Shown here piece by piece: positions 1 to 17,011 of a DNA stretch of 64,000 nucleotides. The notes below the pieces were generated by a model that saw only the letters and a list, made by a program, of their open reading frames with translations, was not told where the DNA came from and made no database searches. Source of the stretch: a virus (taxonomy: Duplodnaviria > Heunggongvirae > Uroviricota > Caudoviricetes). Every line of letters starts with the position of its first letter. Position 1 is the stretch's first letter. The DNA lies in IMG/VR virus record IMGVR_UViG_2541047913_000007; one strand, written 5' to 3'. Both the position numbers and the translations under genes were made by a program.

Positions 1-1563
1 GAACCGTACGGCAATTTCACCCCCCTTGCTGAGAAGATTTTTTGCCTCCTCCACTGCAACAGTACGGAACATTTTCCAGGACGTCAGTTTACCGGGCTGT
101 TTTTCCAGTCGCAGCGCTTTCCGTCCACCGTCATCAGTCACAGTGCCTTTGCCACCGGCAGCCCCCCACTGCTGCTCTGTCCATACACCATTTCCACTGT
201 TCGCATCATATTCAGCCACCGTCCTGGTACTGCTCACGGCCTCATCATGACCAGTACCAGCAACACCGCCATCCTGCGGTTTCTCAACACCCGGTACCCC
301 CGGACTGACATCATCACCGGGAGTTGTACCACCCGACTGCGGTGCGCTCTGCCCGGTAAGGAACGATAATGTCCGCCCGGCGTACTGCAAAATGGCACCT
401 GCCAGGCGGTCTGAAACAATGCCTCTTCGCGCCCATGAACTGAAGTGCGTTTTACGATCGGCTGCCGTCCAGTTACTGGCAGTGCGTGACGCAGCGCCAT
501 AGTATCCCGCCGGGATAATGTCCGGATCTTCTGACGGCTCGTTTGTCGGCACATTCACACCATGCTCATCCGTCATCAACGGCACAAAGAAGATTTTTTT
601 TGCGGATTTCGTCTTGTATGCACCATACACCGCATCGTATTGCGAAGAATAAGTCTGCTTCCAGTAGTAGGTCGTGTCGCCACAAATCCAGGGAACCGAT
701 GACGGAGAGCCCCCGATACACTGACCTCCGAATTCCGACAGGTCAGAACGATATTTTTCCACCATGGAATCAAACAGCCCCGGCTGAGTGGCGTATGCAC
801 CCTGTTTCAAATCAAACTCGCCCTGCATCCAGACCACTGCAAGCAGAATATTTTTAGGGTTAGCCTTCAGTGCGGCCTGAGTACGGGTAAGCAGGTCCTT
901 GTACAGTGGCTTATCTACACCCCAGCGTGCCGAGGTCTCGCTTGCGCCGGTGGATTCGCTGAAAGTACCTTCATCGCCCTCCAAAAATGCAGAACCACCA
1001 CGGCAGCACGGAACCAGAAGAATACCGGCATTCGCCGGAATAAACGGCAGCAGTTTTTTGGCGATATGCAGCCCCTGCCCCACGGTTCCGTACTGCCCCT
1101 TTGACAAGTCCGCTTTCGGATGGTTAAGACGGCTCATGTCCTGTACATCATGCAGACAATGGTCCGCCGGAATGATGTCGTTATATTTACAGGCGACACC
1201 ACCCGGTGTCACCGTACTGCGACGCGCCAGTTGCTTAATGCGCGGGTCCGGACGGTCATATGTCTCCGGCAGCGGCAACCCTTCACCAAAAGACATTGAG
1301 TTTGACTGCCCCGCCAGAACAACAACAAAGTAATACTCCGGTTCGCTGGTGGTGCTGATAACTGTGCCTTCTCCATCCGACGGCTTCACCACCACAGGTG
1401 TGGTGACATCACCTTCCGCCGCAATGGCCTGCATCAGGGTATAAGGCGTGATGGCGACAGGGCTGCCAAATGGCTGCCACCCCTCCTTCAGTTTTTGTGT
1501 CAGTCGCTCCGCAAGGTCTGACGGCGACGCCGCCCTGACCACATCGTAGTGTTTAAATGTCAT
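1..1563 (-). CDS. NanS-p-like sialate O-acetylesterase (DUF1737 N-terminus + SGNH/SASA domain), N-terminal 521 codons; C-terminus beyond window
   Basis: Minus-strand frame open from ATG at 1561-1563 to position 1; translation begins MTFKHYDVVRAASPSDLAERLTQKLKEGWQPFGSP and contains VLAGQSNSMSFGEG (GQSN esterase motif); absent from ORF track because no stop inside window. Confidence 0.7.
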   Translation of the reverse strand, partial: MTFKHYDVVRAASPSDLAERLTQKLKEGWQPFGSPVAITPYTLMQAIAAEGDVTTPVVVKPSDGEGTVISTTSEPEYYFVVVLAGQSNSMSFGEGLPLPETYDRPDPRIKQLARRSTVTPGGVACKYNDIIPADHCLHDVQDMSRLNHPKADLSKGQYGTVGQGLHIAKKLLPFIPANAGILLVPCCRGGSAFLEGDEGTFSESTGASETSARWGVDKPLYKDLLTRTQAALKANPKNILLAVVWMQGEFDLKQGAYATQPGLFDSMVEKYRSDLSEFGGQCIGGSPSSVPWICGDTTYYWKQTYSSQYDAVYGAYKTKSAKKIFFVPLMTDEHGVNVPTNEPSEDPDIIPAGYYGAASRTASNWTAADRKTHFSSWARRGIVSDRLAGAILQYAGRTLSFLTGQSAPQSGGTTPGDDVSPGVPGVEKPQDGGVAGTGHDEAVSSTRTVAEYDANSGNGVWTEQQWGAAGGKGTVTDDGGRKALRLEKQPGKLTSWKMFRTVAVEEAKNLLSKGGEIAVRF

Positions 1564-1744
1564 GAATCCTCCCTGGCGGGATAATGTTGTGAGTCAGATA
1601 AGGAGCGAGCTGAAGTCCGGAAGTTACAGGACAATGGCAGGAGGAAGACTACAGCCCGCAATACGAAAAAGGCCGCGCAGTTGCGCAGCCTTATGAATTC
1701 TGGTTAAAATCCATTCGATTATAAAAATGTATATCTCATGCTGT

Positions 1745-1776
1745 TGCCCGAACCCACTCGGGCTTTTTTTTGCCCA
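1745..1776 (+). terminator. Hairpin plus T8 tract (gcccgaacccactcgggc tttttttt), intrinsic terminator-like on plus strand
   Basis: Inverted repeat followed by run of T read directly. Confidence 0.4.
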
Positions 1777-1783
1777 CAAGAAA

Positions 1784-2035
1784 GCCCCTCCGGAGAGGGG
1801 CTAAAGCCGCGTATCTGTATCATCATGCACATGGTGCCGGGTGCCTCCCGGTGAGTTCAGCCCGGTGCCACTAAACCCGCGTCATTCTCGTTTTGATAAT
1901 CAGAGATTATACCGTCACCAGTCGCCCCTCCGCTCAGGGGGATTCACCATGCGAAATTTTTTTAACAAATGCCCAGTCTGACAGGCAACTGTCAACTTAC
2001 TGAATTGTGAGCAACATAGCATTTAACGGGGAACC
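1784..2035. repeat. Direct repeat unit A (~250 bp) with internal hairpins gcccctccggagaggggc and cccctccgctcaggggg
   Basis: Long blocks shared with unit B: aaagcccctccggagaggggct, gccgggtgcctcccggtgagttcag, gggggattcaccatgc, ctgaattgtgag. Confidence 0.7.
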
Positions 2036-2049
2036 TGTTTTCTGCAGTA

Positions 2050-2082
2050 AAAAGGCCCACCGGAGCGGATGGGCCTGGAAGG
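2050..2082 (-). terminator. Hairpin ggcccatccgctccggtgggcc followed by T-tract on minus strand
   Basis: Inverted repeat plus tttttact on minus strand, in spacer between repeat units. Confidence 0.4.
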
Positions 2083-2268
2083 ATAGCGGTCATGTGATGC
2101 CGGTTTCCCGGTAACTCAGCACCGGTATCTGAGTCAACGTTTTCTCTACTGGGTCATTTCCGATACGCCCTGCCTGCTGACAGGCTTTCATCACATCTGA
2201 AAATATAGCACCCTGACTGATACTGTAGTACCTAAGGTTCCAGAAACTGTGATGTATCCGGCACAGAA

Positions 2269-2520
2269 AAGCCCCTCCGGAGAGGGGCTGGAGAGTGGCG
2301 CTATGTGCCATTGCATGATGCCGGGTGCCTCCCGGTGAGTTCAGTATCAGCACCTGAACCCGCACAGAAAGGATAAGGGTCGGTGACAAAACACCAGTCG
2401 CTGATTGCCCCTCCGCACAGGGGGATTCACCATGCCAGTTTCTTTTAACAAACTCCCCGCAAACCAGACAACAGTCAACCGCCTGAATTGTGAGGTATTT
2501 AAAAATTTCAACGGGTAACT
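2269..2520. repeat. Direct repeat unit B (~250 bp), diverged copy of unit A
   Basis: Same conserved blocks as unit A in same order. Confidence 0.7.
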
Positions 2521-2618
2521 GATACCCTGCTAATCGCCTGATGCTTTCTTTTTCAGCAACGGGAAAGCAACAACCACCACACCCACCAGCCGCCCATTTA
2601 CCACAAATAAAAAAGCCT

Positions 2619-2939
2619 TCAGGACTGAAGGCGTCTGTAACAACCGAACTGATAGTCTGCCAGCCCCGCCATAACAAGCTGGGTCAGTATTAACTGGCAG
2701 CGTTCACGTGAAAGGTAAGTATTCTGCGCAATCTCCCCGACTGTCGCCGGTTCGGTGGCACTTAATTCATTAAACACCACTCTGGCGGTTTCGGTCATAT
2801 CCTGCTGTTTTAGCATGTCTTTTTCCATTTTCTGGTTAACGTAACATACCAATAACTCTTGTCGGAAAAGCCAGCAAGCTGAAAGACCGGTATTCGCAAC
2901 CACCAGCGCGTTTAATGTTCTGTGCCGTTTTTCAGGCAT
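2619..2939 (-). CDS. Hypothetical small protein, possible winged-helix DNA-binding fold, in the position occupied by stx in Stx phages; start uncertain
   Basis: ORF-track 106 aa; ATG abuts the U-tract of the upstream terminator so the true start may be an internal Met. Confidence 0.4.
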   Translation of the reverse strand: MPEKRHRTLNALVVANTGLSACWLFRQELLVCYVNQKMEKDMLKQQDMTETARVVFNELSATEPATVGEIAQNTYLSRERCQLILTQLVMAGLADYQFGCYRRLQS

Positions 2940-2963
2940 AAAAAAACCCGCAAAAAGCGGGCT
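2940..2963 (-). terminator. tR'-like intrinsic terminator downstream of Q (hairpin cccgctttttgcggg plus U7 on minus strand)
   Basis: Perfect 5-bp GC stem and 7 T on minus strand, ~80 nt after the Q stop. Confidence 0.6.
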
Positions 2964-3040
2964 CTTTCAAATGTCCATGTCTGCTATTCGCCTCGTGGTA
3001 CGGCTTTGCGAAGCGTACCGGAATTGAAGCAGTTTTTACG
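2964..3040 (-). promoter_or_regulatory. Putative late promoter pR'/qut region between Q stop and tR'-like terminator
   Basis: Position only, by analogy with lambda Q-pR'-tR' organisation. Confidence 0.3.
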
Positions 3041-3607
3041 TCAAAAAGCAATAACTTTTTTCTCTATACCAAAAGCCATAACCATTGGTTTGTACAAAAT
3101 AAATTCTGCCACCTTTAGCCAATGCTCAATGCGTCTTTCACAGGTTCTTAAACTCCATTCCGGGTGTGCATCATTCAGCAGTTCAGCCATTTTGCGCTTA
3201 GTCATCCCCCGCCCCACATAACGCTGACTCAGGACATTGAGCAGCCCGGGATAGCCTGCCAGGACTTCGCCAATAACCCTGTCGATTATTAACGCCTCTG
3301 AATCGGTACAATGTGCCAGCCAGCTTTTTTGATTGCCGTTGATCATATCCCGCAAAAAAGCCTCAAGTTCAGGTTTGTCCAGACCAGCTTTTTTCATCCT
3401 CCGGAGCGCCTCGTTAATTGCCGTTTTTGTCAGCTTTTTAGAGGTCAGTAATTGGTTGAACATATTTCCCGTCTTACCGCCGCCAATATACGACCAACGC
3501 CCCCACATCCGTAATCGCCCTTGGATCCAGACTGCTTCCAGCGTTTTTAGGCGTAAATGCTCGCCGCTTTTGCCTGTAATTTCCGGATATATCATATTTA
3601 CGCTCAC
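3041..3607 (-). CDS. Late-gene antiterminator Q (lambdoid Q family)
   Basis: 188 aa, directly downstream of rusA with GTGA stop/start overlap, followed by intrinsic terminator; context and size typical of Q. Confidence 0.7.
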   Translation of the reverse strand: MSVNMIYPEITGKSGEHLRLKTLEAVWIQGRLRMWGRWSYIGGGKTGNMFNQLLTSKKLTKTAINEALRRMKKAGLDKPELEAFLRDMINGNQKSWLAHCTDSEALIIDRVIGEVLAGYPGLLNVLSQRYVGRGMTKRKMAELLNDAHPEWSLRTCERRIEHWLKVAEFILYKPMVMAFGIEKKVIAF

Positions 3608-3969
3608 TCACTCTCAATTTTGTAAATCTTCACACCCAGCCGTCCACCAGATACTGGCTGACCACGTACAATATTGATTTCATCAAACTGCTCGTCATCA
3701 ATGAGCACTCCCGCATGCGTCAGCGCATCCAGCGGTGCTTTCAGAATGTTGTCCAGGTCGCGACGACGCTTATCCGGTGGCTCTGCAATCACCTTTATCG
3801 CCAGCCTTCCGGACAGGCTTAATTTCAGCCGCTGCTGGCGAACAATAAGCGCCACAGCCCGGCGATAACGCTTTCCCTCCTCCGAGATAAAATATGTGCT
3901 GCCACGGCGTCGCCAGTAAGTGTTCACCGTCGGCGGGTAAGGCAAAACAAATTCTATGCGTTCGGTCAT
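3604..3969 (-). CDS. rusA: RusA Holliday-junction resolvase
   Basis: 121 aa; motifs PYPPTVNTYW, RRRDLDN, LIDDEQ closely resemble E. coli RusA. Confidence 0.85.
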   Translation of the reverse strand: MTERIEFVLPYPPTVNTYWRRRGSTYFISEEGKRYRRAVALIVRQQRLKLSLSGRLAIKVIAEPPDKRRRDLDNILKAPLDALTHAGVLIDDEQFDEINIVRGQPVSGGRLGVKIYKIESE

Positions 3970-5028
3970 TTATGCTTTCCACTTCAGAACACCCGAATTT
4001 CTCGCGTGCATTAAAAAACGAATCAGCAACAACAACTGACTGCCGTGTTTTTCTTCAAAATCTTTTACTCCGGCATGTAGTTTGTTATGGCATTTACGGC
4101 ACAACGGAATAACAAACAAATCGTCAGCCTTTGTTCCCATACCTCCCAGTCCATGACCAATGATGTGATGCGGATCATCTGCCTGATTGCCACACGTCAT
4201 GCATTTCTGCGTTTTTACCCAGCGCGTGTATACAGGCATCTCTTTCCGTTGTGGTTTCTGGCGCTGGAGGTACTGAGCCGGAGACTCCGGATCAACGGCG
4301 ATGCTTACTAACGTCTTTTCCTGGGGTGGGGGCTGTTGCTGGTGGACGTGAAGTGGCAGCGCAATATTTTTTGTGCGCTGCTTCAGTATGCTGATGGCTG
4401 TCTGTTCTCCCGGTACGATGTCACTCTCACGGTATACGGAGCGGATTTTTTCCACCGGTAATCCCAGCGAACGACGCAATACAGACTCCGGAAGCGCATC
4501 AGCCACCTGATGACAAACCGCCCACCAGCATAACTCTGCCAGCGACAGTTCCCGCTCCTGTGTGCCATTCATTGCGTGACGTATGACATCAATCATCCTG
4601 GCTGCCAGATTCTGCTGAGCAAGTTGATCGAGTGATTCTGATGTCTGGTCGCGCAGCTGGTTGTCACAGTGCCAGCACAACACCATCGCGCCGGTACCGT
4701 AACGGTGAATGACGGTTTCGCTGTGATGATAATCACCGTGTGGCCACTGGCAGGATTTCACGTGACGTAATAACCAGTCAGACAGTGCACCAGCGCCACC
4801 CGCAGCACGAATCACCCGTTCGTTGCTGAAAAATGGCAGTAATGTTTTATCCTCTGCCAGCGGCTGTCGAACGGCAGGAACGACTCCGGACGGCAGATTA
4901 CGCATGCTTTTCGGTTCCGGCTCCACCAGTACCCGGGTATTGTGGAATACCGGCATGGATTCACGGCCCGGCTTAACGATCACCAGCCCGAGTTCCGGTA
5001 CCAGAACAGGTCGAAGTAATACCCGCAC
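3970..5028 (-). CDS. DUF968 family phage protein (YdfU-like), HNH-like C-terminal cysteine/histidine motif; start uncertain
   Basis: 352 aa; C-terminal CMTCGNQADDPHHIIGHGLGGMGTKADDLFVIPLCRKCHNKLH; conserved position upstream of rusA-Q. Confidence 0.65.
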   Translation of the reverse strand: MRVLLRPVLVPELGLVIVKPGRESMPVFHNTRVLVEPEPKSMRNLPSGVVPAVRQPLAEDKTLLPFFSNERVIRAAGGAGALSDWLLRHVKSCQWPHGDYHHSETVIHRYGTGAMVLCWHCDNQLRDQTSESLDQLAQQNLAARMIDVIRHAMNGTQERELSLAELCWWAVCHQVADALPESVLRRSLGLPVEKIRSVYRESDIVPGEQTAISILKQRTKNIALPLHVHQQQPPPQEKTLVSIAVDPESPAQYLQRQKPQRKEMPVYTRWVKTQKCMTCGNQADDPHHIIGHGLGGMGTKADDLFVIPLCRKCHNKLHAGVKDFEEKHGSQLLLLIRFLMHARNSGVLKWKA

Positions 5029-5029
5029 G

Positions 5030-5308
5030 TTACCTCCAGATGCGTTGCTGGAATGTGCGGGACGGACGCGGTGGGCGTTCAGAGTAAGGAAGCCTGACGG
5101 AGATTATCCAGTGACGATAATCGAGGCTGAGGGTTTTCCTAAACTCATACCCACGTCTGCGGTAGTTCTGAATCAGCCATTCGGCCTGTTCTTCAGTGCA
5201 TGGGGCGTGCTGTAACCTGTCAGATTTGAATGCATGAGAACGCCGCCCGTGCCTGCTGGCAAAGACGGCTGAATTATCAGAATTGTATAATTTGGTATCG
5301 TGCGCCAT
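5030..5308 (-). CDS. Hypothetical phage protein (start taken at internal ATG)
   Basis: ORF-track frame 5030..5389 begins with TTG; first ATG gives MAHDTKLYN... Confidence 0.35.
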   Translation of the reverse strand: MAHDTKLYNSDNSAVFASRHGRRSHAFKSDRLQHAPCTEEQAEWLIQNYRRRGYEFRKTLSLDYRHWIISVRLPYSERPPRPSRTFQQRIWR

Positions 5309-5384
5309 CGGTTGTCTCTGCTGGCGCAGCAGGTGCCAGTTGTTCAGGCTGGCGTGCGAATTGTAAACCAGAATGCCAGGAAAA

Positions 5385-5412
5385 AACAAAACCCGCCGAA
5401 GCGGGTTAAGTG
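5385..5412 (-). terminator. Intrinsic terminator downstream of hok (hairpin cccgcttcggcggg plus U-tract)
   Basis: Inverted repeat followed by ttttgtttttt on minus strand. Confidence 0.5.
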
Positions 5413-5475
5413 CGGGTGCGTTGAGGATGCCTGACTCATCAGAGGTGGCGAGGGATTTCTCCCTCGCCAGGTCTC

Positions 5476-5631
5476 TTACTCCTCAGGTTCGTAAGCTGTG
5501 AAGACAGCGACCTCCGTCTGGCCGGTTCGGATTCGTACCTCGCAGAGGTCTTTCCGCGTTACCAGTGCCGTCACAATGACGGTAATACAGATGACGATCA
5601 GGGCGACTAACATCGCCTTTTGCTGCTTCAT
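5476..5631 (-). CDS. hok: Hok/Gef family type I toxin (HokD/RelF-like, 51 aa)
   Basis: MKQQKAMLVALIVICITVIVTALVTRKDLCEVRIRTGQTEVAVFTAYEPEE is near-identical to E. coli HokD. Confidence 0.9.
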   Translation of the reverse strand: MKQQKAMLVALIVICITVIVTALVTRKDLCEVRIRTGQTEVAVFTAYEPEE

Positions 5632-5639
5632 AGCCTGCT

Positions 5640-5720
5640 TCTCCTTGCCTTTCGGCGTGTAAGAGGCTAACCTACATGTGACTAGCATGAAATTGGCCTC
5701 AGATTAATGTTAAGCGTCCT
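5640..5720 (+). ncRNA. Putative Sok-like antisense RNA region opposite the hok/mok leader (position inferred, not delimited)
   Basis: Established hok/sok architecture; no boundaries verified in sequence. Confidence 0.25.
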
Positions 5721-5867
5721 GCAAGACGCATAATGTTAACTGGGGCTTTTCTCTATCTGCCGTTGGTGTTCATGCCCGAGGCAGATAGCCTCAAGCACCC
5801 GCAGCAATTCTACTTAACTCACGTCACCTCGCCAATATGAAATCAATCAGAAAGGTGATCCATAAAA

Positions 5868-6554
5868 TCACTCCTTCTCTTCTTTTCCGTAGTGGAGTTG
5901 GCCAATTTTGATAAGAGGGCGTCCCTGAGATTTGCGGTGTAGATTGGTATCGCGCAGAGAATACACACAGCCACAATATTCCTGCTGATAGAATTTTTCG
6001 CGCTTGCTGATTTCAATCATACGGGACGAGCCGCCCTGCTTGCGCCAGTTATAATCCCAGTACACCATACCCGGATAATGCGCAACAGCTCGCCGCCCAC
6101 ACTCGTTAACCTGCTGCATATTTTTCCAGCGTGAAATGCCCAGTGAACTGCTGATCACACTGAAACCATTTTCAGCAGCGTACAACGCTGTCCGCTCAAA
6201 ACGCATGTCAAAACACATGGTACAACGGATCCCCCTCTCAGGCTCCCATTCCATTCCTTTGGCACGTTCAAACCAGTTGTCGGTGTCGTAATCAGCATCG
6301 ATAAACGGCACGCCGTGTTGTTCAGCAAAGCGAATATTTTCATCCTTACGAATTAAATACTCTTTCTGAGGATGAATGTTCGGGTTGTAGAAAAAGATGG
6401 TGTAGTCGATTCCCGAGGCCTGAAGCGCCTCCATCACTTCACCGGAACATGGAGCACAGCAAGAGTGCAGTAGTAGTTTGTTTGCCCCGTTTGGGAGTTC
6501 CAATTTAGGCCGTTTGAAATCAGCAATAGTCATAAATATTTTTATTGGGGTCAT
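5868..6554 (-). CDS. DUF208 / QueH-like protein (epoxyqueuosine reductase family candidate)
   Basis: 228 aa; N-terminal [14 protein letters not shown] and C-terminal [11 protein letters not shown] cysteine motifs characteristic of DUF208. Confidence 0.6.
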
Positions 6555-6707
6555 GAAAATAGCACAGAGTGTAGCATCAGAGCAGGGCTATCGGGAATAT
6601 ATGTCTAAATCTGGTAATATCTGGTTTTGACGCAAAGCGGACAACCACGCTGGCTCTACCCTGCGCCATGAAAATGTCAATTCACATCTGAACTAATGCT
6701 CTTTAAT

Positions 6708-7103
6708 CTAGTAACGTCTAAAATACCTAACATTTCCTTGATAAAATGCCAGTACACGCTGCATAACTTCGCTCTGGCGGCACTCACGACAAATTATGTT
6801 CTGCCGTCTGTTGTAACGACGTATTTCTCCGTCAGGTAACTTTCGAATCAGTGTCGGGTCAGCAGCCTTCTCCGGTGTCTTACGCCATACGCGATACGCC
6901 TGCTCTGATGGAAATACCCCGCAATCAGAGAGCCAGACATCACCACTGGCCGCAAGCGCACCAGATAAACGACGAATAGCGGTCTTACTGACACCCGTTT
7001 TATCTGCCAGTTGTCGAAAAGTTTCTCGTCCGCTCAGGCGCACGAATTCCACAATGCGCGCCTTCACTTCTTCCCGCTCTTCTGGTGTAAATACTTTTGC
7101 CAT
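6708..7103 (-). CDS. Hypothetical phage protein with HTH-like segment
   Basis: ATG at 7103 preceded by ggagg; segment LADKTGVSKTAIRRL. Confidence 0.45.
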   Translation of the reverse strand: MAKVFTPEEREEVKARIVEFVRLSGRETFRQLADKTGVSKTAIRRLSGALAASGDVWLSDCGVFPSEQAYRVWRKTPEKAADPTLIRKLPDGEIRRYNRRQNIICRECRQSEVMQRVLAFYQGNVRYFRRY

Positions 7104-7118
7104 AAGCGCCTCCGGCAA

Positions 7119-7844
7119 TCACTTTTCCGACACAATACGACCGGATGAATCGACAATCTGTCGAACAATATCCCGGTGCTTGTTCAGCTCCCGCAGCGCG
7201 GCGCAGACTCGCTCCCACTTCTGAACCTGACCTTTTGCCCGGCGCAGCTCGCGGTTAGCCACATGCAGCGATGGTAAAATCAGACCATCCGGATGTTTTC
7301 TGGTGAACGACGGCTGTGACTGCACTGTGACCGCCACACTTTCCGTTTTTATTTCTTCCTGTGTTTCTGCTTCCCGGACAGGTAACGCAACACCTGCTGG
7401 CTGAGGAAAGGCTTTACCATCGGTTTCCGCTACGGATGCAGCTTCCGGCTCTGCCGGTAAATCAGCGCCCGGTATGCAGTAACGAAATTTACCGCCCTGA
7501 TTCACGCGAATCAGACGCCCTTTGCTGATTGCCATGGCCAGCGATGAATTCGCCCGGCGGGAGGTAATCCCGAACATCAGTGCCAGCTCATCCGCCGTTT
7601 GTGGGCCATGTTGTTCAATCGCCTCAGTCAGCATTTGCGCTGTCACTTTCGGTACCGGTGACACCGGTTCACTTTCACCAGCCTGAATCAGCCGCCACAT
7701 CGAACCCTTGTTATCCGCTTCACCGCGGCGCTTCAGTTTCCACAGTTCGTTGACCGCATCTTCACGGCTGATTCCAAGGCGGGCCGCCACTACCTGTGAA
7801 GAGGCTCTTTTCAGTGCTTTCAGTGCGTCAAATACGGTTTCCAT
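7119..7844 (-). CDS. Hypothetical phage early protein with N-terminal winged-helix-like domain (DUF1627-like)
   Basis: [38 protein letters not shown]-terminus; ATG at 7844 preceded by ggagg. Confidence 0.45.
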
Positions 7845-7877
7845 TAAAATTTCCTCCGACAAAATCGTTTCTCAGAT

Positions 7878-8543
7878 TCAAATAAAACCAGCTGCCTTCC
7901 GGCGTTCGTATTCCTGTTTCAGCCGTTCAATTGGCGTTGGCCCTTGCGGGTGTTTCGCCCCTTCCAGTTGTCGTCGCACTGGCGGAACACTCATCCCGTT
8001 ACCAACATGCTTTGCCCATTTCGTCAGTTGCCGTTCCGCAAGTCGTTTTAACTCACCCTGCGTCATCTGGCGCTCAATCCCTCTGGTACGCATTTCGAGG
8101 CAGATGTGGTACAGCACAGGCTGTGGCCACGGGTATTTATCACTCCCGTCGTATCGCCAGGATTCATTGCGCCAGCGCCGGTACTCTTCCATCACTGCAT
8201 CCACCGTAAGACCAAATGGATTTGCCCCACTCTCCGAAATCAGTGCAACAAACTCAGCCAGGTCCGGGGGCCACGTTTCACCCGCCCGGCAGCGGTCCAT
8301 GCACTGACGGCAGACCAGCCGGATTTGCTGTTCAGTCATCGCGCCAATCTGGGCAATCCAGAGCTTCGAAGGTGCGGCCCCGTTCTTCTGGGTCCAGCGG
8401 TTCGAATACACCTCCCCCATAAGCTCCCACAGCTTCCAGGCCGTTTCCGTCGCTGATAAATCCGTTTTCACGTTCCCACTGCTCACGTGCTGCCCGAATT
8501 TCCTGAACTGCCCGTGATGCGGTGCCACCTGGTGCTGCTGCAT
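7878..8543 (-). CDS. Lambda P-like replication protein (helicase loader); 5' end overlaps O-like ORF in another frame, start uncertain
   Basis: C-terminal YPWPQPVLYHICLEMRTRG...TQGELKRLAERQLTKWAK parallels lambda P; adjacent to O-like gene. Confidence 0.6.
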   Translation of the reverse strand: MQQHQVAPHHGQFRKFGQHVSSGNVKTDLSATETAWKLWELMGEVYSNRWTQKNGAAPSKLWIAQIGAMTEQQIRLVCRQCMDRCRAGETWPPDLAEFVALISESGANPFGLTVDAVMEEYRRWRNESWRYDGSDKYPWPQPVLYHICLEMRTRGIERQMTQGELKRLAERQLTKWAKHVGNGMSVPPVRRQLEGAKHPQGPTPIERLKQEYERRKAAGFI

Positions 8544-9372
8544 GGTTTACCCCCTTGCTGACTGGTTTTACCTGTGCCCTGACGTGCTGCACGTGGCGGG
8601 CAAATTTCTGCTCCCACTGAACCTGCGTGAAAACCTTCCCCTCCGCCATCCAGTAATCCCGGAATGCGGCAAGCTCTGCAGGTGTAAATTCCGGCTCAGG
8701 CAGAGCCATACCCCACACTGCTGCCCGTTGTCGAAAATCCGACGACGGCTGCCAGACAGTAGTCATCGAAAATTTCCCGATCGGTTCGCTCAGGCCGTCC
8801 AGGTATTCAGGTTCGGCTGTCTGCAACGGCGCACCATGCGACTCACCGGTTGGAGCACTCTCGCGCATGCGCGCGTTATGTGTGGGGTTTAATTCTGTAT
8901 CTGTATCTTTATCTGTCGTGACTTGTCGTGACGGATGCGTGACACGTCGTGACTCATCGTGACAATCAGCATCATATTTCCGCAGCTTTTCGCGCTCCCG
9001 CTGCGCTCTCTTGCGCTCTGCCGGGGATTTTGCCGTTTGCGAAACGTTACCATTGTCCTCTTTCAGCACCTGACGTTTTTCCCATCCGGAAATAAGGTCA
9101 CCATCCAGAACCCGCCCCTGCATTGCATGCAAAATTGAATCAATTACGTCTTCCGTCACATCAAGCGCACTTGCTAAATCTTCCGTCGTGACATCAATGT
9201 GACCACGTAGTGACACGCCGTGACATGTCGTGACATTTCGTGACGCACTCACCAGAAGGTGGATATACACCGCCATCACTGTTGCGATTGGCTGTCCTGA
9301 GACCCTGGCAATGGTTCGCCATTTGGGATCATTTGGCATGTCATGCCACAATCTGAGCCAGGCATTAGCCAT
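8332..9372 (-). CDS. Replication initiator (lambda O-like / replisome organiser) containing two iteron clusters
   Basis: 346 aa from ATG at 9372; iterons embedded in coding sequence; position between cro-like/ydaT-like and P-like. Confidence 0.65.
   Translation of the reverse strand: MANAWLRLWHDMPNDPKWRTIARVSGQPIATVMAVYIHLLVSASRNVTTCHGVSLRGHIDVTTEDLASALDVTEDVIDSILHAMQGRVLDGDLISGWEKRQVLKEDNGNVSQTAKSPAERKRAQREREKLRKYDADCHDESRRVTHPSRQVTTDKDTDTELNPTHNARMRESAPTGESHGAPLQTAEPEYLDGLSEPIGKFSMTTVWQPSSDFRQRAAVWGMALPEPEFTPAELAAFRDYWMAEGKVFTQVQWEQKFARHVQHVRAQVKPVSKGVNHAAAPGGTASRAVQEIRAAREQWERENGFISDGNGLEAVGAYGGGVFEPLDPEERGRTFEALDCPDWRDD
8912..8965. repeat. Iteron cluster 1 (about 5 copies of CGTGAC-containing ~10-bp repeats), putative replication origin element
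   Basis: ctgtcgtgac ttgtcgtgac ggatgcgtgac acgtcgtgac tcatcgtgac. Confidence 0.7.
9183..9245. repeat. Iteron cluster 2 (about 6 copies of GTGAC-containing repeats)
   Basis: ccgtcgtgac...tgtgac...tagtgac...gccgtgac...tgtcgtgac...ttcgtgac. Confidence 0.7.
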
Positions 9373-9440
9373 ACTCACCTCATCTGATACCGAACTTTAC
9401 CCTCGAACATCCGGAAGAAATCCGGCATGAATATTGTTGG

Positions 9441-9866
9441 TCAATGCACGACAACAGCATTACCAGGCTGACCACCACTGTTAGTCAGGGTGCCCCAGGC
9501 GATCGCCGCTGCGACAAAATCATCCACATCTTTCACCAGCCGATCCCTCCGTTCGACGATCTCACGGTAATATTCAGAGCTGTGACTGCGCATACGGGCC
9601 ACCAGCAGAGGCGGCATTGCCTTTTCGATCGCCGGTAACAGAGCCTGAATTTTTTCAACAGCATCAGGGGTGTCTTTATCCAGCCAACGGAAAATTTTCT
9701 GGGTATTACGAGCCAGGGCTTCCGGATGGCTGTCGTCGTACAGTTCCGGGAACGTCATTCCCAGCTCGAAATACGCTTTGGTAATTTTCGCAGCCGGTAC
9801 TTTTTCGCCGTCCGGATGCGCCCAGACATTCATCGCCATGCGGATGTGTTCATGCTTGATTTTCAT
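9441..9866 (-). CDS. YdaT-like protein (Rac-type early protein in the cII position)
   Basis: 141 aa immediately downstream of the cro-like gene, overlapping its end. Confidence 0.45.
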   Translation of the reverse strand: MKIKHEHIRMAMNVWAHPDGEKVPAAKITKAYFELGMTFPELYDDSHPEALARNTQKIFRWLDKDTPDAVEKIQALLPAIEKAMPPLLVARMRSHSSEYYREIVERRDRLVKDVDDFVAAAIAWGTLTNSGGQPGNAVVVH

Positions 9867-10131
9867 GAATCAAGCTCCTAGAAAGTGGTTGTGTTAACGT
9901 TTTGGTATCTTCCAGCTCGGGCCAAATATTCATCCAATCAAAAGGCCTTAGTTGCTGACGTGTAACTTCACCATTACTGGCTCGCTCAATAAGGACACAT
10001 AACGATGCCCCTAACACTTGACCTTTACTCAATGCTTTTCTTAGATAACCGATGCTGGTACCACACTCGCATGCAAACATACGCTGTTCATCTGACGAAA
10101 GAGAATTGAGAAATATTCTTAATTCTTCCAT
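9850..10131 (-). CDS. Cro-like/YdaS-like HTH regulator
   Basis: 93 aa with HTH segment CECGTSIGYLRKALSKGQ; aaggag SD; divergent from repressor gene. Confidence 0.6.
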   Translation of the reverse strand: MEELRIFLNSLSSDEQRMFACECGTSIGYLRKALSKGQVLGASLCVLIERASNGEVTRQQLRPFDWMNIWPELEDTKTLTQPLSRSLIHENQA

Positions 10132-10231
10132 AGCTACTCCTTAGTAAACACAGCAAAGAATACCCGCAGGTAAACAAAAGTCAATACCCACAGGTTGTTT
10201 ACCTTACGGTAATCGCATCTATTATTTACCT
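10132..10231. promoter_or_regulatory. Divergent promoter/operator region between cro-like and repressor genes
   Basis: Inverted repeats caggtaaacaa...ttgtttacct and near-palindrome ttacggtaa. Confidence 0.5.
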
Positions 10232-10651
10232 ATGGACAAATATGAATTTAGACGACAGCAACTCATCAAAATTCGTGATGAGAAATGCGATGGTAAAGCG
10301 GTTAACGTGGCCAGAAAGATCGGGCGCGAGCCTTCTTATGTATCAAGAATGTTGTACCCAGAGGGGAAAAAGGGAAAAAAACGGATCGCTGATGATATGG
10401 TGGAGATTATCGAAGAGTCCTTTGGGTTACCCCGGGGATGGATGGATGGTATCGTTTCATCATCAACGAACACAGCCTCCAGTTATGAAACAAGGGTTCT
10501 AACGCCACGACAACGTATTTTTTTAGATCTCTTAGACGAACTGCCAGAAAGTGAAGCGGATAAATTATTAAAAACTCTTGAAGAGAAAAAACAGTATTAC
10601 AATATGATCTACGAAGAAATCCGTAAAAAGAAAGCACAAAACGCATCATAG
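10232..10651 (+). CDS. Phage repressor-like DNA-binding protein
   Basis: 139 aa, HTH-like segment AVNVARKIGREPSYVSRML; essentially leaderless ATG; divergent from cro-like. Confidence 0.55.
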   Translation: MDKYEFRRQQLIKIRDEKCDGKAVNVARKIGREPSYVSRMLYPEGKKGKKRIADDMVEIIEESFGLPRGWMDGIVSSSTNTASSYETRVLTPRQRIFLDLLDELPESEADKLLKTLEEKKQYYNMIYEEIRKKKAQNAS

Positions 10652-10692
10652 CTCACCAAACAACTAGTCACCAGTTAAGACACCGCAAAAAT

Positions 10693-10738
10693 TTACCCAT
10701 AGGTATTTACTTTTTGAATACCTATGGGTATCCTTCTT
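10693..10738 (+). terminator. 13-bp perfect inverted repeat (cccataggtattt...aatacctatggg) followed by T-rich tract
   Basis: Palindrome read directly, 40 bp after repressor stop. Confidence 0.4.
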
Positions 10739-10915
10739 TTCATACCAACCCACCCCGCCCCACAGAATGCAGGGCAATACTTCGAGTTACCCGGCAGTGG
10801 TCAGGGGTTAAGTAGCCAGCCCGAGGCGTATGAACATGACGGCGGGAACACTTTGTATAACAGCGCAGCAGGTTTTTGTTCCGCTACCCCGGCGTTAAGG
10901 GGAAATGAGGTCAGC

Positions 10916-11068
10916 ATGGATACTATCGAGCTTGGCAACAGCGAATCTCTGGTATGCGGCGTGTTTCCCAACCAGTACGGCACGTTTACCGCGATGACGT
11001 ATACCAAAAGTAAAACGTTTAAAACCGAAGCTGGCGCGCATCGCTGGTTAGCAAGAAACTCCGACTGA
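10916..11068 (+). CDS. Hypothetical small protein (50 aa)
   Basis: ATG preceded by gagg; within ORF-track frame 10724..11068. Confidence 0.3.
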   Translation: MDTIELGNSESLVCGVFPNQYGTFTAMTYTKSKTFKTEAGAHRWLARNSD

Positions 11069-11481
11069 TGAGGTTGACGATGGAATTTAAAGATTTACCA
11101 GTACCATTCCAGGAAATGGCATCGAATGTGGTTCGCTCTCAACTGGCGACTCTTGACCTGAGTACCGTAGAAAAAGAAACCATCGATACTATATCCGGTA
11201 ACGTGCGTCGTGCCTTTATAGGTCTGTATGAAGAGAAGCGCCTATTCGGCGGACAGAATTCGCCTGAAAACAAGAATCAAGCAAATGATGAGAAGCTGAA
11301 ACACATTATCGCCTTACTTTTGGAAGACGCAAAACGTCTACAGCAACTGGAACCAAATGCAGGCACAGAGGCCCGCATTTGGATTGCCATGAAATCACTC
11401 AAATGTGAAAGCAGTGATTATTTCAAAACAACAATTAAAACTACTCAACTTTCGGGAGAGCTACTGAAGAAATTGCCATAA
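11068..11481 (+). CDS. Hypothetical phage early protein
   Basis: 137 aa ORF, TGATG overlap with upstream ORF. Confidence 0.4.
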   Translation: MRLTMEFKDLPVPFQEMASNVVRSQLATLDLSTVEKETIDTISGNVRRAFIGLYEEKRLFGGQNSPENKNQANDEKLKHIIALLLEDAKRLQQLEPNAGTEARIWIAMKSLKCESSDYFKTTIKTTQLSGELLKKLP

Positions 11482-11725
11482 GAGCATGGTCTTTCTCTTG
11501 TTCTGCAAGATGAGCATTAATACCTGGTATGGTTTTTTCAAATTTATCTATCTGTTGAATAACAACTTCGCGGTATACGTTTGTTTTTGTACCACCAAGC
11601 GCAGCCGTTAATGCAGAAAGCATATTTAGTATCATATCAGTACGATATGAAAAGAATCCTGATAGCTTCATCTTGTTTTTCAATAATAGATTGCAGGGCC
11701 TCAATTTGCTTTTTATCCATTTCAC
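11441..11725 (-). CDS. Hypothetical protein (GTG start; a 27-codon ATG ORF with better SD exists in another frame)
   Basis: ORF track; convergent with 11068..11481. Confidence 0.25.
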   Translation of the reverse strand: MKWIKSKLRPCNLLLKNKMKLSGFFSYRTDMILNMLSALTAALGGTKTNVYREVVIQQIDKFEKTIPGINAHLAEQEKDHALMAISSVALPKVE

Positions 11726-12281
11726 CCTCCTGAGGGTTGGTAATTAAGGAGTTCTCCACGGGTCAGGTGGAGTGCGTGCGCCGGACACGGGTGAGCATCC
11801 GGCACTGACAGTTTACTGAAAGGATATGTCCCTGAAAAGTCAGGGCATAACGCGAAAGCGCACGGCGAAATTGGTCTCTCTGTACGGTGTCGTTAAATTT
11901 AGTTCGACCGTGCACTTCCGGTTGTGGCACTCCGCGAAATGGCGCGGCGGTAAGTATGGCTGGGGTTTCCTCCATTGCTCCAGAAAATGCACCGGGTTGT
12001 CAGGTTGACCATACGCTTAAGTGACAGCCCCGCCACAATACCCATGCGTAGTCTTTGGTGGCATCAGTTCTACTCCGTGACTGCTCTGCCACCCTTTTTA
12101 AAGTGAATTTTGTGATGCGGTGAATGCGGCTATGCGCACGCGGAACAGTTAAAACCGTAAAGTGGTCTTTTACGGGGCGTAACGGGCATCCTTCTGTATT
12201 CCGGCGTTAATTGTTAACTGGTTAACGTCACCTGGAGGCACCAGGCACTGCATCACAAAATTCATTGTTGAGGACGCGATA

Positions 12282-12470
12282 ATGGAAACGTTATTACCAA
12301 ACGTTAATACGTCTGAAGGTTGTTTTGATATTGGAGTTCTGCTCAGTAACCGGGAGTTTACTGAAGATGCCATTAAGATGAGAAAATATGAACCTTATCT
12401 TCTCAATGATAATTCCATACTTTCCAGAATTGCCCTTCTTGAACTTGGTATTATCGGAGAACAGCAGTGA
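12282..12470 (+). CDS. Hypothetical small protein (62 aa)
   Basis: ATG preceded by gagga; ATGA overlap with next ORF. Confidence 0.4.
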   Translation: METLLPNVNTSEGCFDIGVLLSNREFTEDAIKMRKYEPYLLNDNSILSRIALLELGIIGEQQ

Positions 12471-12655
12471 CTTCAGCATTTGCACTGGTGATGACCGTTT
12501 TTCTTATAACGGGTGAGCCACAAAATGTGATTACCGGAATTTATGACAGTAAGTCATCCTGCATTCAGGTAAGGGACGAACAAAAAATCCCCGGTGAATG
12601 CCTCCCGTTAAAAAAAGTATCGCTGTACCTGAATAACGAAACACCGGCTGGATAA
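12467..12655 (+). CDS. Hypothetical small protein with hydrophobic N-terminus (62 aa)
   Basis: MTSAFALVMTVFLITG N-terminal hydrophobic segment; translationally coupled to upstream ORF. Confidence 0.4.
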   Translation: MTSAFALVMTVFLITGEPQNVITGIYDSKSSCIQVRDEQKIPGECLPLKKVSLYLNNETPAG

Positions 12656-12747
12656 CCCGCCAGCCATATTAACGCCATACCAACGGATTAAAAATGCCAG
12701 CAATGGCAGGAATTTGTTCATCCTTAAAATGGTTATGAGGTTTATCA

Positions 12748-15186
12748 ATGAACGCTGATAAAGAAGAAATTGCACTATATTACGAAGCCAAAAATGACAA
12801 AGTCAGAAAACGCCTTGGGATTAAAGGTGGTTTTTACTGGCGCACAGCAAAAAAATTATCGGTTGCAATATCACGCGGTGTTGCTGCAATGGACGATGCC
12901 GGATTTGACGAAGAGGATTTTAAAAAACCCATCCGCGTCCATTTACCCGTTGTGAATGACCTTCCACCGGAAGGTGTGTTTGATACTGAATTCTGCAACC
13001 GATACGAAAAAGGCGGAGAAGATGGTATCACAATGATATTTATAGCGCCCTCCCCCTCAGTTCAGGACAAACCAGCCAGCACTGACAATACCAACGTCAA
13101 TGGCGAAGACATGGCTGAGATTGAGGATAATATGCTCCTGCCGATTTCCGGTCAGGAACTGCCCATTCGCTGGCTTGCGCAACATGGCAGCGAAAAACCG
13201 GTAACGCACGTTTCACGAGAAGAACTTCAGGCATTACATATCGCACGAGCTGAAGAACTACCGGCTGTTACTGGCCTGGCTATTTCCCACAACACAAAGC
13301 TGCTCGACCCGCTGGAGATTCGCGACCTTCACAAATTGGTACGCGACACTGACAAAGTTTTCCCTAATCCCGTTAATTCCAGTCTGGGGTTCATGACTGC
13401 TTTTTTCGAAGCATACCTGGACACTGACTATACCGATCGAGGTCTGCTGACAAAAGAGTGGATGAAAGGAAATCGTGTTTCTCGCATCACCCGCACGGCT
13501 TCCGGTGCAAATGCCGGTGGCGGAAATAAAACCGATCGTAATCCTGACTTAGTACACACTCTCGATACTCTGGATGTGGAGGCTGCAGCAGCCACGCTTC
13601 CGATGGATTTTAATATTTATGAAATTCCCGGGAGCGTTTATCGTCGCGCAAAAGAAATCGTCCTGAAAAAAGAAAGTCCGTTCAGGGAATGGTCCGCAGC
13701 ACTTCGCGCAACCCCTGGTATCCTGGACTATTCCCGCGCAGCTATTTTTGCACTTATCCGAAGCGCCCACCCTGAGTTTTATCACTACCCGGGGCGCCTT
13801 CAGGGGTATATCAATGCCAACCTGACAGAAACTGATCACGAGAATCCCACAGCTGAAACGCTCATGGCTGCCCGGCATACACCGGAAAAAGATATCCTGG
13901 AAGAAATTAACGGCGGACTGGCTGCTGAGTGCAAAACAGAAGAAGAAAAAAATGATGAAGATAACCCGCAACCATCTGGCGCAATGGCAGATGAACAGGC
14001 AACGGCTGAAACAATGGCAGCGGATACAGTTGAACATCATCAGGACCCGCAGCCGCTGGATGACAAGTCACAGGTAAAAGTTACCGCTGACGAAGTAAAC
14101 AAAATTATGCAGGCAGCCAATATCAGCCAGCCTGACGCCGATAAGTTGCTTGCTGCCTCTCGCGGAGAATTTGTTGCAGGGATTAGCGACCCGAATGATC
14201 CGAAATGGGTAAAGGGGATTGAAACCCGCGATTCTGTAAACCAGAACCAGCAAGAATCGGAACAGAACGACCAGAAAGCGGAACAAAACAGCCCAAATGC
14301 GTTACAAAACGAGCCAGAAACGAAACAGCCTGAACCAGTGGCGCAACAGGAAGTGGAAAAAGTCTGCACCGCCTGCGGTCAGACCGGCGGCGGCAACTGC
14401 CCTGATTGTGGCGCGGTGATGGGCGACGCAACATACCAGGAAACATTCGATGAAGAGTATCAGGTTGAAGTTCAGGAAGATGATCCGGAGGAAATGGAAG
14501 GCGCTGAACATCCACACAAGGAGAATGCTGGCAGCGCTCAGGATCACGCCAGCGATAGTGAAACTGGCGAGACGGCAGATCCCTTAATTACGGTGAACGG
14601 TCATCACGTTATCACATCCACCAGCAGGTTGTGGCACCATCTGATGATTGACCTTGAAACCATGGGAAAAAATCCTGATGCCCCGATCATCTCAATAGGT
14701 GCAATATTTTTCGATCCGCAAACCGGAGATATGGGACCGGAATTTAGTAAGACTATCGATCTGGAAACTGCTGGCGGGGTCATTGATCGGGACACCATTA
14801 AATGGTGGCTTAAGCAATCACGCGAAGCGCAATCTGCCATTATGACCGATGAAATCCCGTTAGATGATGCACTGTTACAATTGCGGGAATTTATCGACGA
14901 AAACTCCGGTGAATTTTTTGTTCAGGTCTGGGGAAATGGAGCCAACTTCGACAACACGATTTTGCGCCGTTCATACGAACGGCAGGGGATCCCCTGCCCG
15001 TGGAGTTACTACAACGATCGCGATGTACGCACAATCGTTGAGCTGGGGAAAGCCATAGACTTCGATGCCAGAACTGCTACCCCATTCGAAGGTGAGCGCC
15101 ATAATGCACTTGATGACGCCCGTTATCAGGCAAAATACGTTTCAGCTATCTGGCAAAAACTGATCCCGAGTCAGGCTGATTTTTAA
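12748..15186 (+). CDS. Large early protein with acidic linker, CxxC zinc ribbon and C-terminal DEDDh (DnaQ-like) 3'-5' exonuclease domain
   Basis: 812 aa; [16 protein letters not shown]; exonuclease motifs [33 protein letters not shown]. Confidence 0.7.
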
Positions 15187-15257
15187 TGTTCAACCGTCGT
15201 CGGTTGCAATTGGTATTCTGCAACCGGCGTTCATCTGATGTAAGAGATAAAGAATCG

Positions 15258-15509
15258 ATGAGCGAAGTAATCATGATCGTCTCTCCTGGCAAATGGGTAT
15301 CCGAAGAGCAGTTAATTGCACTTAAAGGAATCAAAAAGGGAACGCTAAAAAAAGCCAGGGAAAAATCGTTTATGGAAGGAAGGGAATATAAGCATGTCGC
15401 TCATGACGGTATGCCATGGGATAACAGTCCATGCTTTTACAACCTGGAAGAAATTGATCGCTGGATTGAGCGCCAGGCATCTGCAAGACCAAGACGTCAT
15501 CTTGCTTGA
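15258..15509 (+). CDS. xis: Excisionase-like protein
   Basis: 83 aa immediately upstream of integrase. Confidence 0.5.
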   Translation: MSEVIMIVSPGKWVSEEQLIALKGIKKGTLKKAREKSFMEGREYKHVAHDGMPWDNSPCFYNLEEIDRWIERQASARPRRHLA

Positions 15510-15528
15510 CTAAAAGCAACACGAACCA

Positions 15529-16824
15529 ATGAGAGAAGCTGAAATGAAATATCCGACAGGCGTGGAAAACCATGGAGGGAAATTACGTATCTGGTTTGTT
15601 TATAAAGGTGTAAGAGTCCGGGAAAATCTTGGGGTTCCTGACACAGCAAAAAACAGACGCATTGCAGGTGAGCTACGCGCCTCTGTTTGTTACGCAATAA
15701 AAACTGGCGCTTTCGACTATGCAAAACAGTTTCCCGCCTCACACAATCTGGAAAAATTTGGTGAGGCCCGACAAGATTTAACCATAAAAGAACTGGCTGA
15801 AAAATTTCTGGCACTGAAAGAAACTGAAGTCGCAAAAACGTCACTCAACACGTACCGTGCCGTCATCAAAAATATTCTGAGCATAATCGGTGAAAAAAAT
15901 CTTGCATCATCGATTAATAAAGAAAAATTGCTGGCAGTACGTAAAGAGTTACTGACTGGATACCAGATCCCCAAAAGTAACTATATTGTTACACAACCAG
16001 GGAGATCGGCTGTTACCGTAAATAATTACATGACAAATCTTTACGCCGTGTTCCAGTTTGGTGTTGATAACGGTTATCTGGCAGACAATCCATTTAAGGG
16101 GATCTCACCATTAAAGGAGTCGAGAACCATCCCGGATCCACTTTCGCGGGAGGAGTTTATCCGCCTTATTGACGCGTGCAGAAATCAGCAAGCCAAAAAT
16201 TTATGGTGTGTTTCCGTTTATACTGGGATTCGCCCTGGTGAACTCTGTGCGCTTGGATGGGAAGATATAGATCTGAAAAATGGAACAATGATAATCAGAA
16301 GAAATCTGGCAAAAGACCGTTTTACAGTACCAAAAACACAGGCGGGAACCAATCGTGTGATTCACCTTATTAAGCCCGCAATCGACGCTCTCCGGAGTCA
16401 GATGGCACTAACGAGACTGAGCAAAGAGCATATCATCGATGTTCACCTCAGAGAATTCGGCAGAACAGAGAAACAAAAATGTACCTTTGTTTTTCAACCT
16501 GAAGTGTCAGCGAAAGTAAAAAATTATGGTGACCATTTTACCGTTGACTCAATAAGGCAGATGTGGGACGCAGCGGTAAAGCGTGCCGGAATCCGCCATC
16601 GCAAATCGTATCAGTCGAGACACACTTATGCCTGCTGGTCGTTAACAGCAGGAGCTAACCCGGCATTCATTGCAAACCAGATGGGCCATGCAGATGCGCA
16701 AATGGTGTTTCAGGTGTACGGGAAATGGATGTCAGAAAATAATAATGCGCAGGTAACGCTGTTAAATACACAGTTAAGCGAGTTTGCCCCAACCATGCCC
16801 CATAACGAAGCAATGAAAAATTAA
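15529..16824 (+). CDS. int: Tyrosine site-specific integrase
   Basis: 431 aa; C-terminal RHTYACW and HAD...MVFQVYGKW catalytic-region motifs; terminal position next to host gene. Confidence 0.85.
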   Translation: MREAEMKYPTGVENHGGKLRIWFVYKGVRVRENLGVPDTAKNRRIAGELRASVCYAIKTGAFDYAKQFPASHNLEKFGEARQDLTIKELAEKFLALKETEVAKTSLNTYRAVIKNILSIIGEKNLASSINKEKLLAVRKELLTGYQIPKSNYIVTQPGRSAVTVNNYMTNLYAVFQFGVDNGYLADNPFKGISPLKESRTIPDPLSREEFIRLIDACRNQQAKNLWCVSVYTGIRPGELCALGWEDIDLKNGTMIIRRNLAKDRFTVPKTQAGTNRVIHLIKPAIDALRSQMALTRLSKEHIIDVHLREFGRTEKQKCTFVFQPEVSAKVKNYGDHFTVDSIRQMWDAAVKRAGIRHRKSYQSRHTYACWSLTAGANPAFIANQMGHADAQMVFQVYGKWMSENNNAQVTLLNTQLSEFAPTMPHNEAMKN

Positions 16825-17011
16825 TTTAATATTTATCAAATAGTTAACACGCATGACTCTTGAAATCCATAAATTCAAGCGCAGTGCCCAGCCATCCCGA
16901 TACTGCTGCTTTCACCAAATCCTTAGTGCTTCTTTCATGTTTTTCTATTGTCATAATGGTTATCTCTAAAAAAGAGGTAAGATGCGTACTACTTACTCGC
17001 CGTTATTGGTA
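16825..17011. other. Prophage 1 attachment junction (attR side) between int and rspB
   Basis: Intergenic AT-rich 187 bp between integrase stop and rspB stop. Confidence 0.4.

Follow-up and report, generated by a model that had tools for sequence, protein, structure and literature searches.

Escherichia coli lacks de novo synthesis of vitamin B12 and must import it, and organisms that carry both of the epoxyqueuosine reductases, QueG and QueH, are reportedly few. QueG is one of four cobamide-dependent enzymes in E. coli (PMC11841063), while QueH is the cobamide-independent alternative (PMC6461909), and the presence of both enzymes in Staphylococcus aureus has been interpreted as a response to the availability of the cofactor (PMC13443448). 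The queuosine (Q) modification affects the reading of NAU and NAC codons; in E. coli, biofilm formation, virulence and stress phenotypes have been connected with it (PMC10570037, PMC9508795), and NAU-rich genes have been connected with biofilm and virulence (PMC10570037). In a 2019 survey of the deazaguanine genes of viruses, homologs of QueA, QueG and QueH were reported to be absent from the viruses studied (PMC6884629), and no description of a phage-borne QueH was found in the searchable literature. The locus described here is a queH gene carried by a lambdoid prophage. Its identification is not new, since the protein and its QueH name are already in RefSeq (approximately 1,000 genomes), and both the enzyme and this type of genomic setting are known.

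The window (the whole stretch of 64,000 nucleotides that was analysed) starts with the early half of a lambdoid prophage, which takes up its first ~16.9 kb (1..16900, from the late-operon start to the integrase, as mapped from the L007 annotation). Mapped in the same way to window coordinates, the integrase lies at ~15529-16824 and rspB at ~17012-18031; the prophage is integrated beside rspB, and host chromosome (rspB, rspA, ynfA-H and onward) fills the rest of the window. The minus-strand gene order is cro, ydaT, an O-like gene, P, DUF1627, DUF977, queH, hok/sok, a hypothetical gene, DUF968, rusA and a Q-like antiterminator. The early-operon genes for DUF977, DUF1627, replication protein P and the O-like/DnaT-like protein (6708..9378, minus strand; ORFs and the RefSeq annotation of the near-identical JNEC-KY177 prophage) are located upstream of queH in the direction of transcription and form one flank of the slot that it occupies. 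On the other side lies the hok/mok/sok type I toxin-antitoxin locus (5476..5800, minus strand), recognised from a mok ORF at 5476-5688, the RefSeq hokD CDS and the Rfam sok model (113 bits at 5626-5800). The sequence-only reading had placed the gene beside hok, between hok and the replication module of a nin-type region, and the gene order agrees: with the replication genes on one side and hok, DUF968, RusA and the Q-like antiterminator on the other, the region is equivalent to the nin region of lambda. The hok/sok locus itself is functionally unconnected with queH. A prophage at ompW with another replication module has the queH-hok pair too, as does the isolated temperate phage HannyBb, where queH is annotated only as 'hypothetical protein'.

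The open reading frame was found exactly where the sequence-only reading had put it, as a maximal ORF of 228 aa at 5868..6554 in the program-made ORF list, and the present analysis adds its strand (minus). The true coding sequence is, however, probably the shorter one of 221 aa at 5868..6533 (minus strand), which begins at Met8 (ATG 6533-6531) and not at the first ATG of the ORF at 6554, and which is identical to WP_000150294.1, named "epoxyqueuosine reductase QueH" by RefSeq. Both the RefSeq CDS and the chromosomal queH homologs begin at this same methionine, and a TGCTAC element in the leader is conserved at a fixed distance from the conserved ATG, which argues for Met8 as the real start and would place the ATG at 6554 within the 5' leader. 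Later starts were also encountered. The PHROGs family of the protein, phrog_3217, is labelled 'unknown function', and its profile (188 positions) aligns only from residue 41 on (residues 41-228, window 5868-6434); the Prokka-style annotation of one homolog likewise begins ~36 codons late. Gene callers seem to choose Met41 after the SD-like GGTGAAGTG, losing the CCAPC motif, and this late start may be the reason why the phage family was never connected to QueH.

The QueH (DUF208) assignment, previously suggested by two cysteine motifs, is borne out by a profile match far above the cut-off and by conserved cysteines; neither of the outcomes that the sequence-only reading had named as refuting the assignment, a missing DUF208 match or a loss of the cluster-binding cysteines, was seen. 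Both motifs are present, the 11-residue one at residues 27-37 and YCGC at residues 193-196. The Pfam profile PF02677 QueH (DUF208) matched over positions 1-174 of 175 with 221.5 bits (E=1.1e-65; curated cut-off 23.5 bits), and the solved QueH of Thermotoga maritima (PDB 7lc5) was matched with E=7.6e-22, residues 20-196 of the 221-aa form aligning with chain residues 4-178 of 192. An NCBIfam profile search of the window protein gave no match, and the naming of the protein as QueH by PGAP evidently comes by a route other than NCBIfam. The conservation of ligand residues was assessed in an alignment of 95 sequences, comprising the window protein, T. maritima chain residues 4-178, 80 loci from different species and several homologs of 32-50% identity. 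The six metal-binding cysteines common to 7lc5 were invariant in all 95 sequences, down to 32% identity; C32, C33, C111, C114, C194 and C196 of the window protein correspond to C9, C10, C87, C90, C169 and C171 of the T. maritima enzyme. The PDB deposits include C9S and D13N mutants of T. maritima QueH. The equivalent of Cys9 is kept in the window protein, while the position of Asp13 is taken by Cys36. A cysteine is found at this position in 94 of the 95 sequences and an aspartate in T. maritima alone, so CCAPC, the form of the window protein, is the usual one in this sample, and the crystallised enzyme deviates from it. An eighth cysteine, Cys152 (codon at ~6099-6101), is missing from T. maritima QueH and is kept in 84 of the 95 sequences, with S, A, I, L or T in the others.

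Comparison with other prophages by blastn delimited the queH mosaic block to 5862..6649 (minus strand), which comprises the gene and ~115 nt of leader. In HannyBb-type phages (L002, L193, L197), queH forms a separate block of 788 bp with ~92.5% identity, parted from the hok block by a 373-bp insertion. The hok-side homology of queH-less prophages stops at 5865, right at the queH stop codon, and the viral contig L240 carries queH without hok. These sequence boundaries indicate that queH and its leader move as a unit among prophage backbones. Other genes fill the slot between DUF977 and hok in related backbones: an NgoMIV restriction endonuclease and a cytosine methyltransferase plus DUF551 (L096, 478-2488), an alpha/beta-hydrolase on the opposite strand in O157:H7 (L097, 4347-5120), or two hypothetical genes (L095, 4360-6339). 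Among related E. coli prophages, the slot is a hotspot for cargo or defence genes. The earlier description of the gene as a moron largely holds: queH is a block that is either present or absent at a fixed slot, with a conserved promoter-like element of its own, but no terminator for it was found. A scan from the queH stop (5868) to the promoter-like site of hok (5835..5807, sigma-70 scan) gave none, the first terminator being located after hok at 5407..5390. Apart from sok, the Rfam matches in the window were weak, sub-threshold ones near hok. One of these was to isrK, an Hfq-binding sRNA of Salmonella prophages (5386-5467, minus strand; 27.8 bits against a gathering score of 50, E=0.002); the isrK-like stretch overlaps the post-hok terminator, and the hypothetical gene, DUF968, rusA and the Q-like gene follow directly downstream of it.

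Upstream of queH, an extended -10 promoter-like element (TGcTACACT, 6568..6576, minus strand), 34 nt upstream of the Met8 ATG, is predicted to be the native queH promoter. When 10 prophage and chromosomal leaders were aligned, the TGCTAC hexamer proved invariant between flanks that have diverged beyond recognition, and 16 loci from the clade of Escherichia-prophage and Enterobacter-group genes had the exact hexamer at -40 to -45 (background 1.15% per random 80-nt window). More broadly, 73 of 89 queH loci had a -10-like hexamer at -52 to -23 against a background of 31%; the p-values for the element are overstated, as the sequences are related and intergenic DNA is AT-rich, though the pattern is still clear. 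A two-hexamer sigma-70 scan upstream of queH gave no minus-strand promoter, with counts not above those of shuffled sequence, and the promoter was thus called solely from the comparative conservation of the -10 element. The 65 nt that directly precede Met8 share 77% identity with the sequence preceding the chromosomal queH of Enterobacter hormaechei. Judging from these leaders, queH very probably arrived with its native promoter, and it can probably be transcribed on its own from this predicted site. Control by a riboswitch or another regulatory RNA was considered and rejected, as an Rfam search upstream of queH in the window and at nine chromosomal loci yielded nothing, neither a cobalamin nor a preQ1 riboswitch. 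Thus, no riboswitch ties queH expression to B12, nor does anything else in the sequence.

The gene was detected in 995 of 5,426 complete E. coli genomes (~18%, about a fifth), where RefSeq names it 'epoxyqueuosine reductase QueH'. As queG is present in all 5,426, every queH carrier has both reductases. The exact 221-aa protein, named QueH, occurs on at least 1,000 contigs. Some genomes have two queH copies, such as NZ_CP069893.1 (E. coli FDAARGOS_1286), two being the maximum number of places per genome; three places in the complete E. coli genomes are on plasmids. Among 50,697 phage records, HannyBb was the only credible queH phage. The record 'Acinetobacter phage MD-2021a' (L093, CAKLQH020000001.1, 328 kb) was rejected as a bacterial chromosome contig in which soxR, cynX, tadA and LysR-type genes flank queH, and QueH phage records assigned to Staphylococcus, Listeria and 'Bacteriophage sp.' were set aside because they are flagged UNVERIFIED (UNVERIFIED_ORG for Staphylococcus and Listeria). 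In IMG/VR (2.9 million viral contigs), 189 contigs match patterns of the window protein, and the best 80 of these 189 encode this very protein; scanning IMG/VR with a general QueH motif gave 197 relatives in all.

Some of these relatives belong to other genetic backgrounds. In another prophage lineage (L185, 5965-8548, IMG/VR 2923634449_000004, and the related L187 and L192), an 87% identical queH occupies the same post-replication slot together with an adjacent AIPR abortive-infection gene. The two are there transcribed opposite to the replication genes, so queH must be transcriptionally autonomous in this lineage. Elsewhere, queH was found on a contig that also bears a cI-like repressor and a colicin M-like gene (L190), and in integrase-linked islands (L200, L237). 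A low-GC (32%) phage contig (L183, 4908-6573, IMG/VR 2061766007_000167), which also has its own clamp-loader and Pol III beta genes, encodes a QueH of 37% identity directly after a RecA-like gene; this QueH seems to have been acquired independently, perhaps by a virulent phage.

The closest relatives of the window gene are chromosomal queH genes of other Enterobacterales (Enterobacter, Kluyvera, Erwinia, Serratia, Proteus, Providencia and others), with 80-91% identity. In Erwinia, Serratia, Rahnella, Pectobacterium, Sodalis, Proteus and Providencia, the gene order around queH is conserved in a genus-specific manner and is free of phage genes; in those genera queH is a chromosomal gene inherited vertically. 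In Enterobacter, Kluyvera and Scandinavium (86-91% identity), queH is found at varying sites among metabolic genes, and phage neighbours of queH are common to the Escherichia and Shigella loci only. Relative to the Enterobacter copies, dS was at least 1.0, at or near saturation, so the capture is not recent.

Taken together with the cofactor requirements of the two reductases, a reading in which the prophage carries a functional QueH, captured from an Enterobacteriaceae chromosome with its promoter and now serving as cargo that gives the lysogen a B12-independent last step of Q synthesis, appears reasonably likely. According to this model, the queH product would be a cobalamin-independent iron/iron-sulfur enzyme that converts epoxyqueuosine (oQ) into Q at position 34 of tRNA-Asn, -Asp, -His and -Tyr. 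The gene would have been taken from an Enterobacteriaceae chromosome together with its own promoter, and would now travel with lambdoid prophages of Escherichia and Shigella as the 788-bp block, in the slot that separates their replication genes from hok/sok. Lysogenic conversion would then allow Q synthesis to be finished when cobalamin is scarce or QueG is limiting, in the manner of a MetE/MetH pair. As every E. coli has the B12-requiring QueG and makes no B12 de novo, a B12-independent backup is the most likely role for the gene. From cofactor chemistry and gene co-occurrence we infer the B12 part of this model. The model further supposes that QueH would be active in E. coli, would be expressed in the lysogen and would bring a benefit under B12 limitation.

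An alternative beneficiary is the phage itself. After induction, queH could be expressed from the early-right (pR-type) operon, so that more Q-tRNA would make phage translation faster or more accurate. The gene lies on the strand of cro, the replication genes and the Q-like antiterminator, no terminator separates them, and owing to this co-orientation queH could be expressed mainly by read-through in lytic growth. Infection by a Shewanella phage raises queG expression and the Q/oQ ratio, so the oQ-to-Q step can shift during infection (bioRxiv 10.64898/2026.03.05.709803). The codon usage of the prophage does not reflect such a benefit, however, and lends no support to the phage manipulation of queuosine that the sequence-only reading had offered as a possibility. 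Q-decoded codons make up a share of 0.141-0.144 in prophage genes and 0.129-0.153 in host genes, i.e. without enrichment, and NAU use is slightly lower in prophage genes than in neighbouring host genes (0.55-0.56 versus 0.60-0.64), while control pyrimidine-ending codon pairs are alike in prophage and host. Codon-usage support for a benefit to the phage was accordingly discarded. A link to phage tRNA genes was likewise rejected: the window has no tRNA genes and hence none of the Q family, and the tRNAs of the complete related prophage are Arg, Arg and Ile only. Further, queH keeps its own conserved promoter element, and most related prophages do without the gene altogether. Tuning of lytic translation is therefore considered unlikely.

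It could also be argued that queH contributes nothing and merely hitch-hikes with the addictive hok/sok locus or with a successful prophage backbone. Such a passenger would be compatible with hok adjoining queH in most copies, with host QueG already performing the reaction, and with 707 of the 995 queH copies being at least 99% identical, as would be expected from a recent spread of one allele. The more diverged prophage copies are less easily reconciled with neutrality. Between the window gene and that of HannyBb, dN/dS was 0.068 (dS 0.30), and between the window gene and a Shigella prophage copy 0.059 (dS 0.16); such low ratios indicate that the gene has been maintained as a working protein while phage-borne. 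Of the 995 queH genomes, 985 keep at least 80% of the gene. Nor is the association with hok a strict one, since queH is found without hok in L240 and parted from it by an insertion elsewhere, and independent prophage lineages (L185, L190) have queH as well. A neutral passenger thus seems distinctly improbable.

[quoted passage not shown]

The reading of queH as a B12-independent backup for the lysogen is plausible and testable, and of modest interest. If it is true, ~18% of the E. coli strains sequenced so far would be unlike K-12 in whether their tRNAs bear Q or oQ when B12 is absent, a strain-level and phage-borne difference in the translation apparatus that would be missed by studies of K-12, and a tRNA-modification enzyme would join the list of prophage fitness cargo. 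More tentatively, and with rather less confidence than in the backup reading itself, it may be proposed that a temperate phage uncouples Q maturation from the B12 supply in about one-fifth of E. coli and thereby shifts the translation of NAU-rich genes in B12-poor niches, which would be the first lysogenic-conversion function to act on the queuosine pathway.

In comparison with known systems, the window protein resembles T. maritima QueH (7lc5) and the PF02677 family in its full-length profile match, its six cysteines and the extent of the domain. It differs in a C-terminal tail of ~25 residues past the PF02677 domain, and in being encoded by a prophage and not at a conserved chromosomal locus. 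Like the morons and lysogenic-conversion cargo of lambdoid phages in the nin-equivalent region, queH is an optional gene at a fixed slot, is swapped with unrelated cargo and has a promoter-like element. Unlike them, it was detected without a terminator of its own, and its cargo is a housekeeping tRNA-modification enzyme and not a virulence, exclusion or defence gene. QueH is predicted to catalyse the same reaction as host QueG, and every queH-positive E. coli genome has the two genes, but the two enzymes are non-homologous, QueG requiring a cobamide (PMC11841063) and QueH being independent of it (PMC6461909), and queG is core (5,426/5,426) whereas queH is accessory (995/5,426). A parallel is offered by MetE/MetH pairs, in which two non-homologous enzymes with differing cobalamin needs serve one reaction in one genome (PMC6461909). 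No B12 riboswitch or other B12-linked regulation was found for queH, in contrast to these pairs, and the B12-independent partner is here supplied by a prophage and varies from strain to strain.
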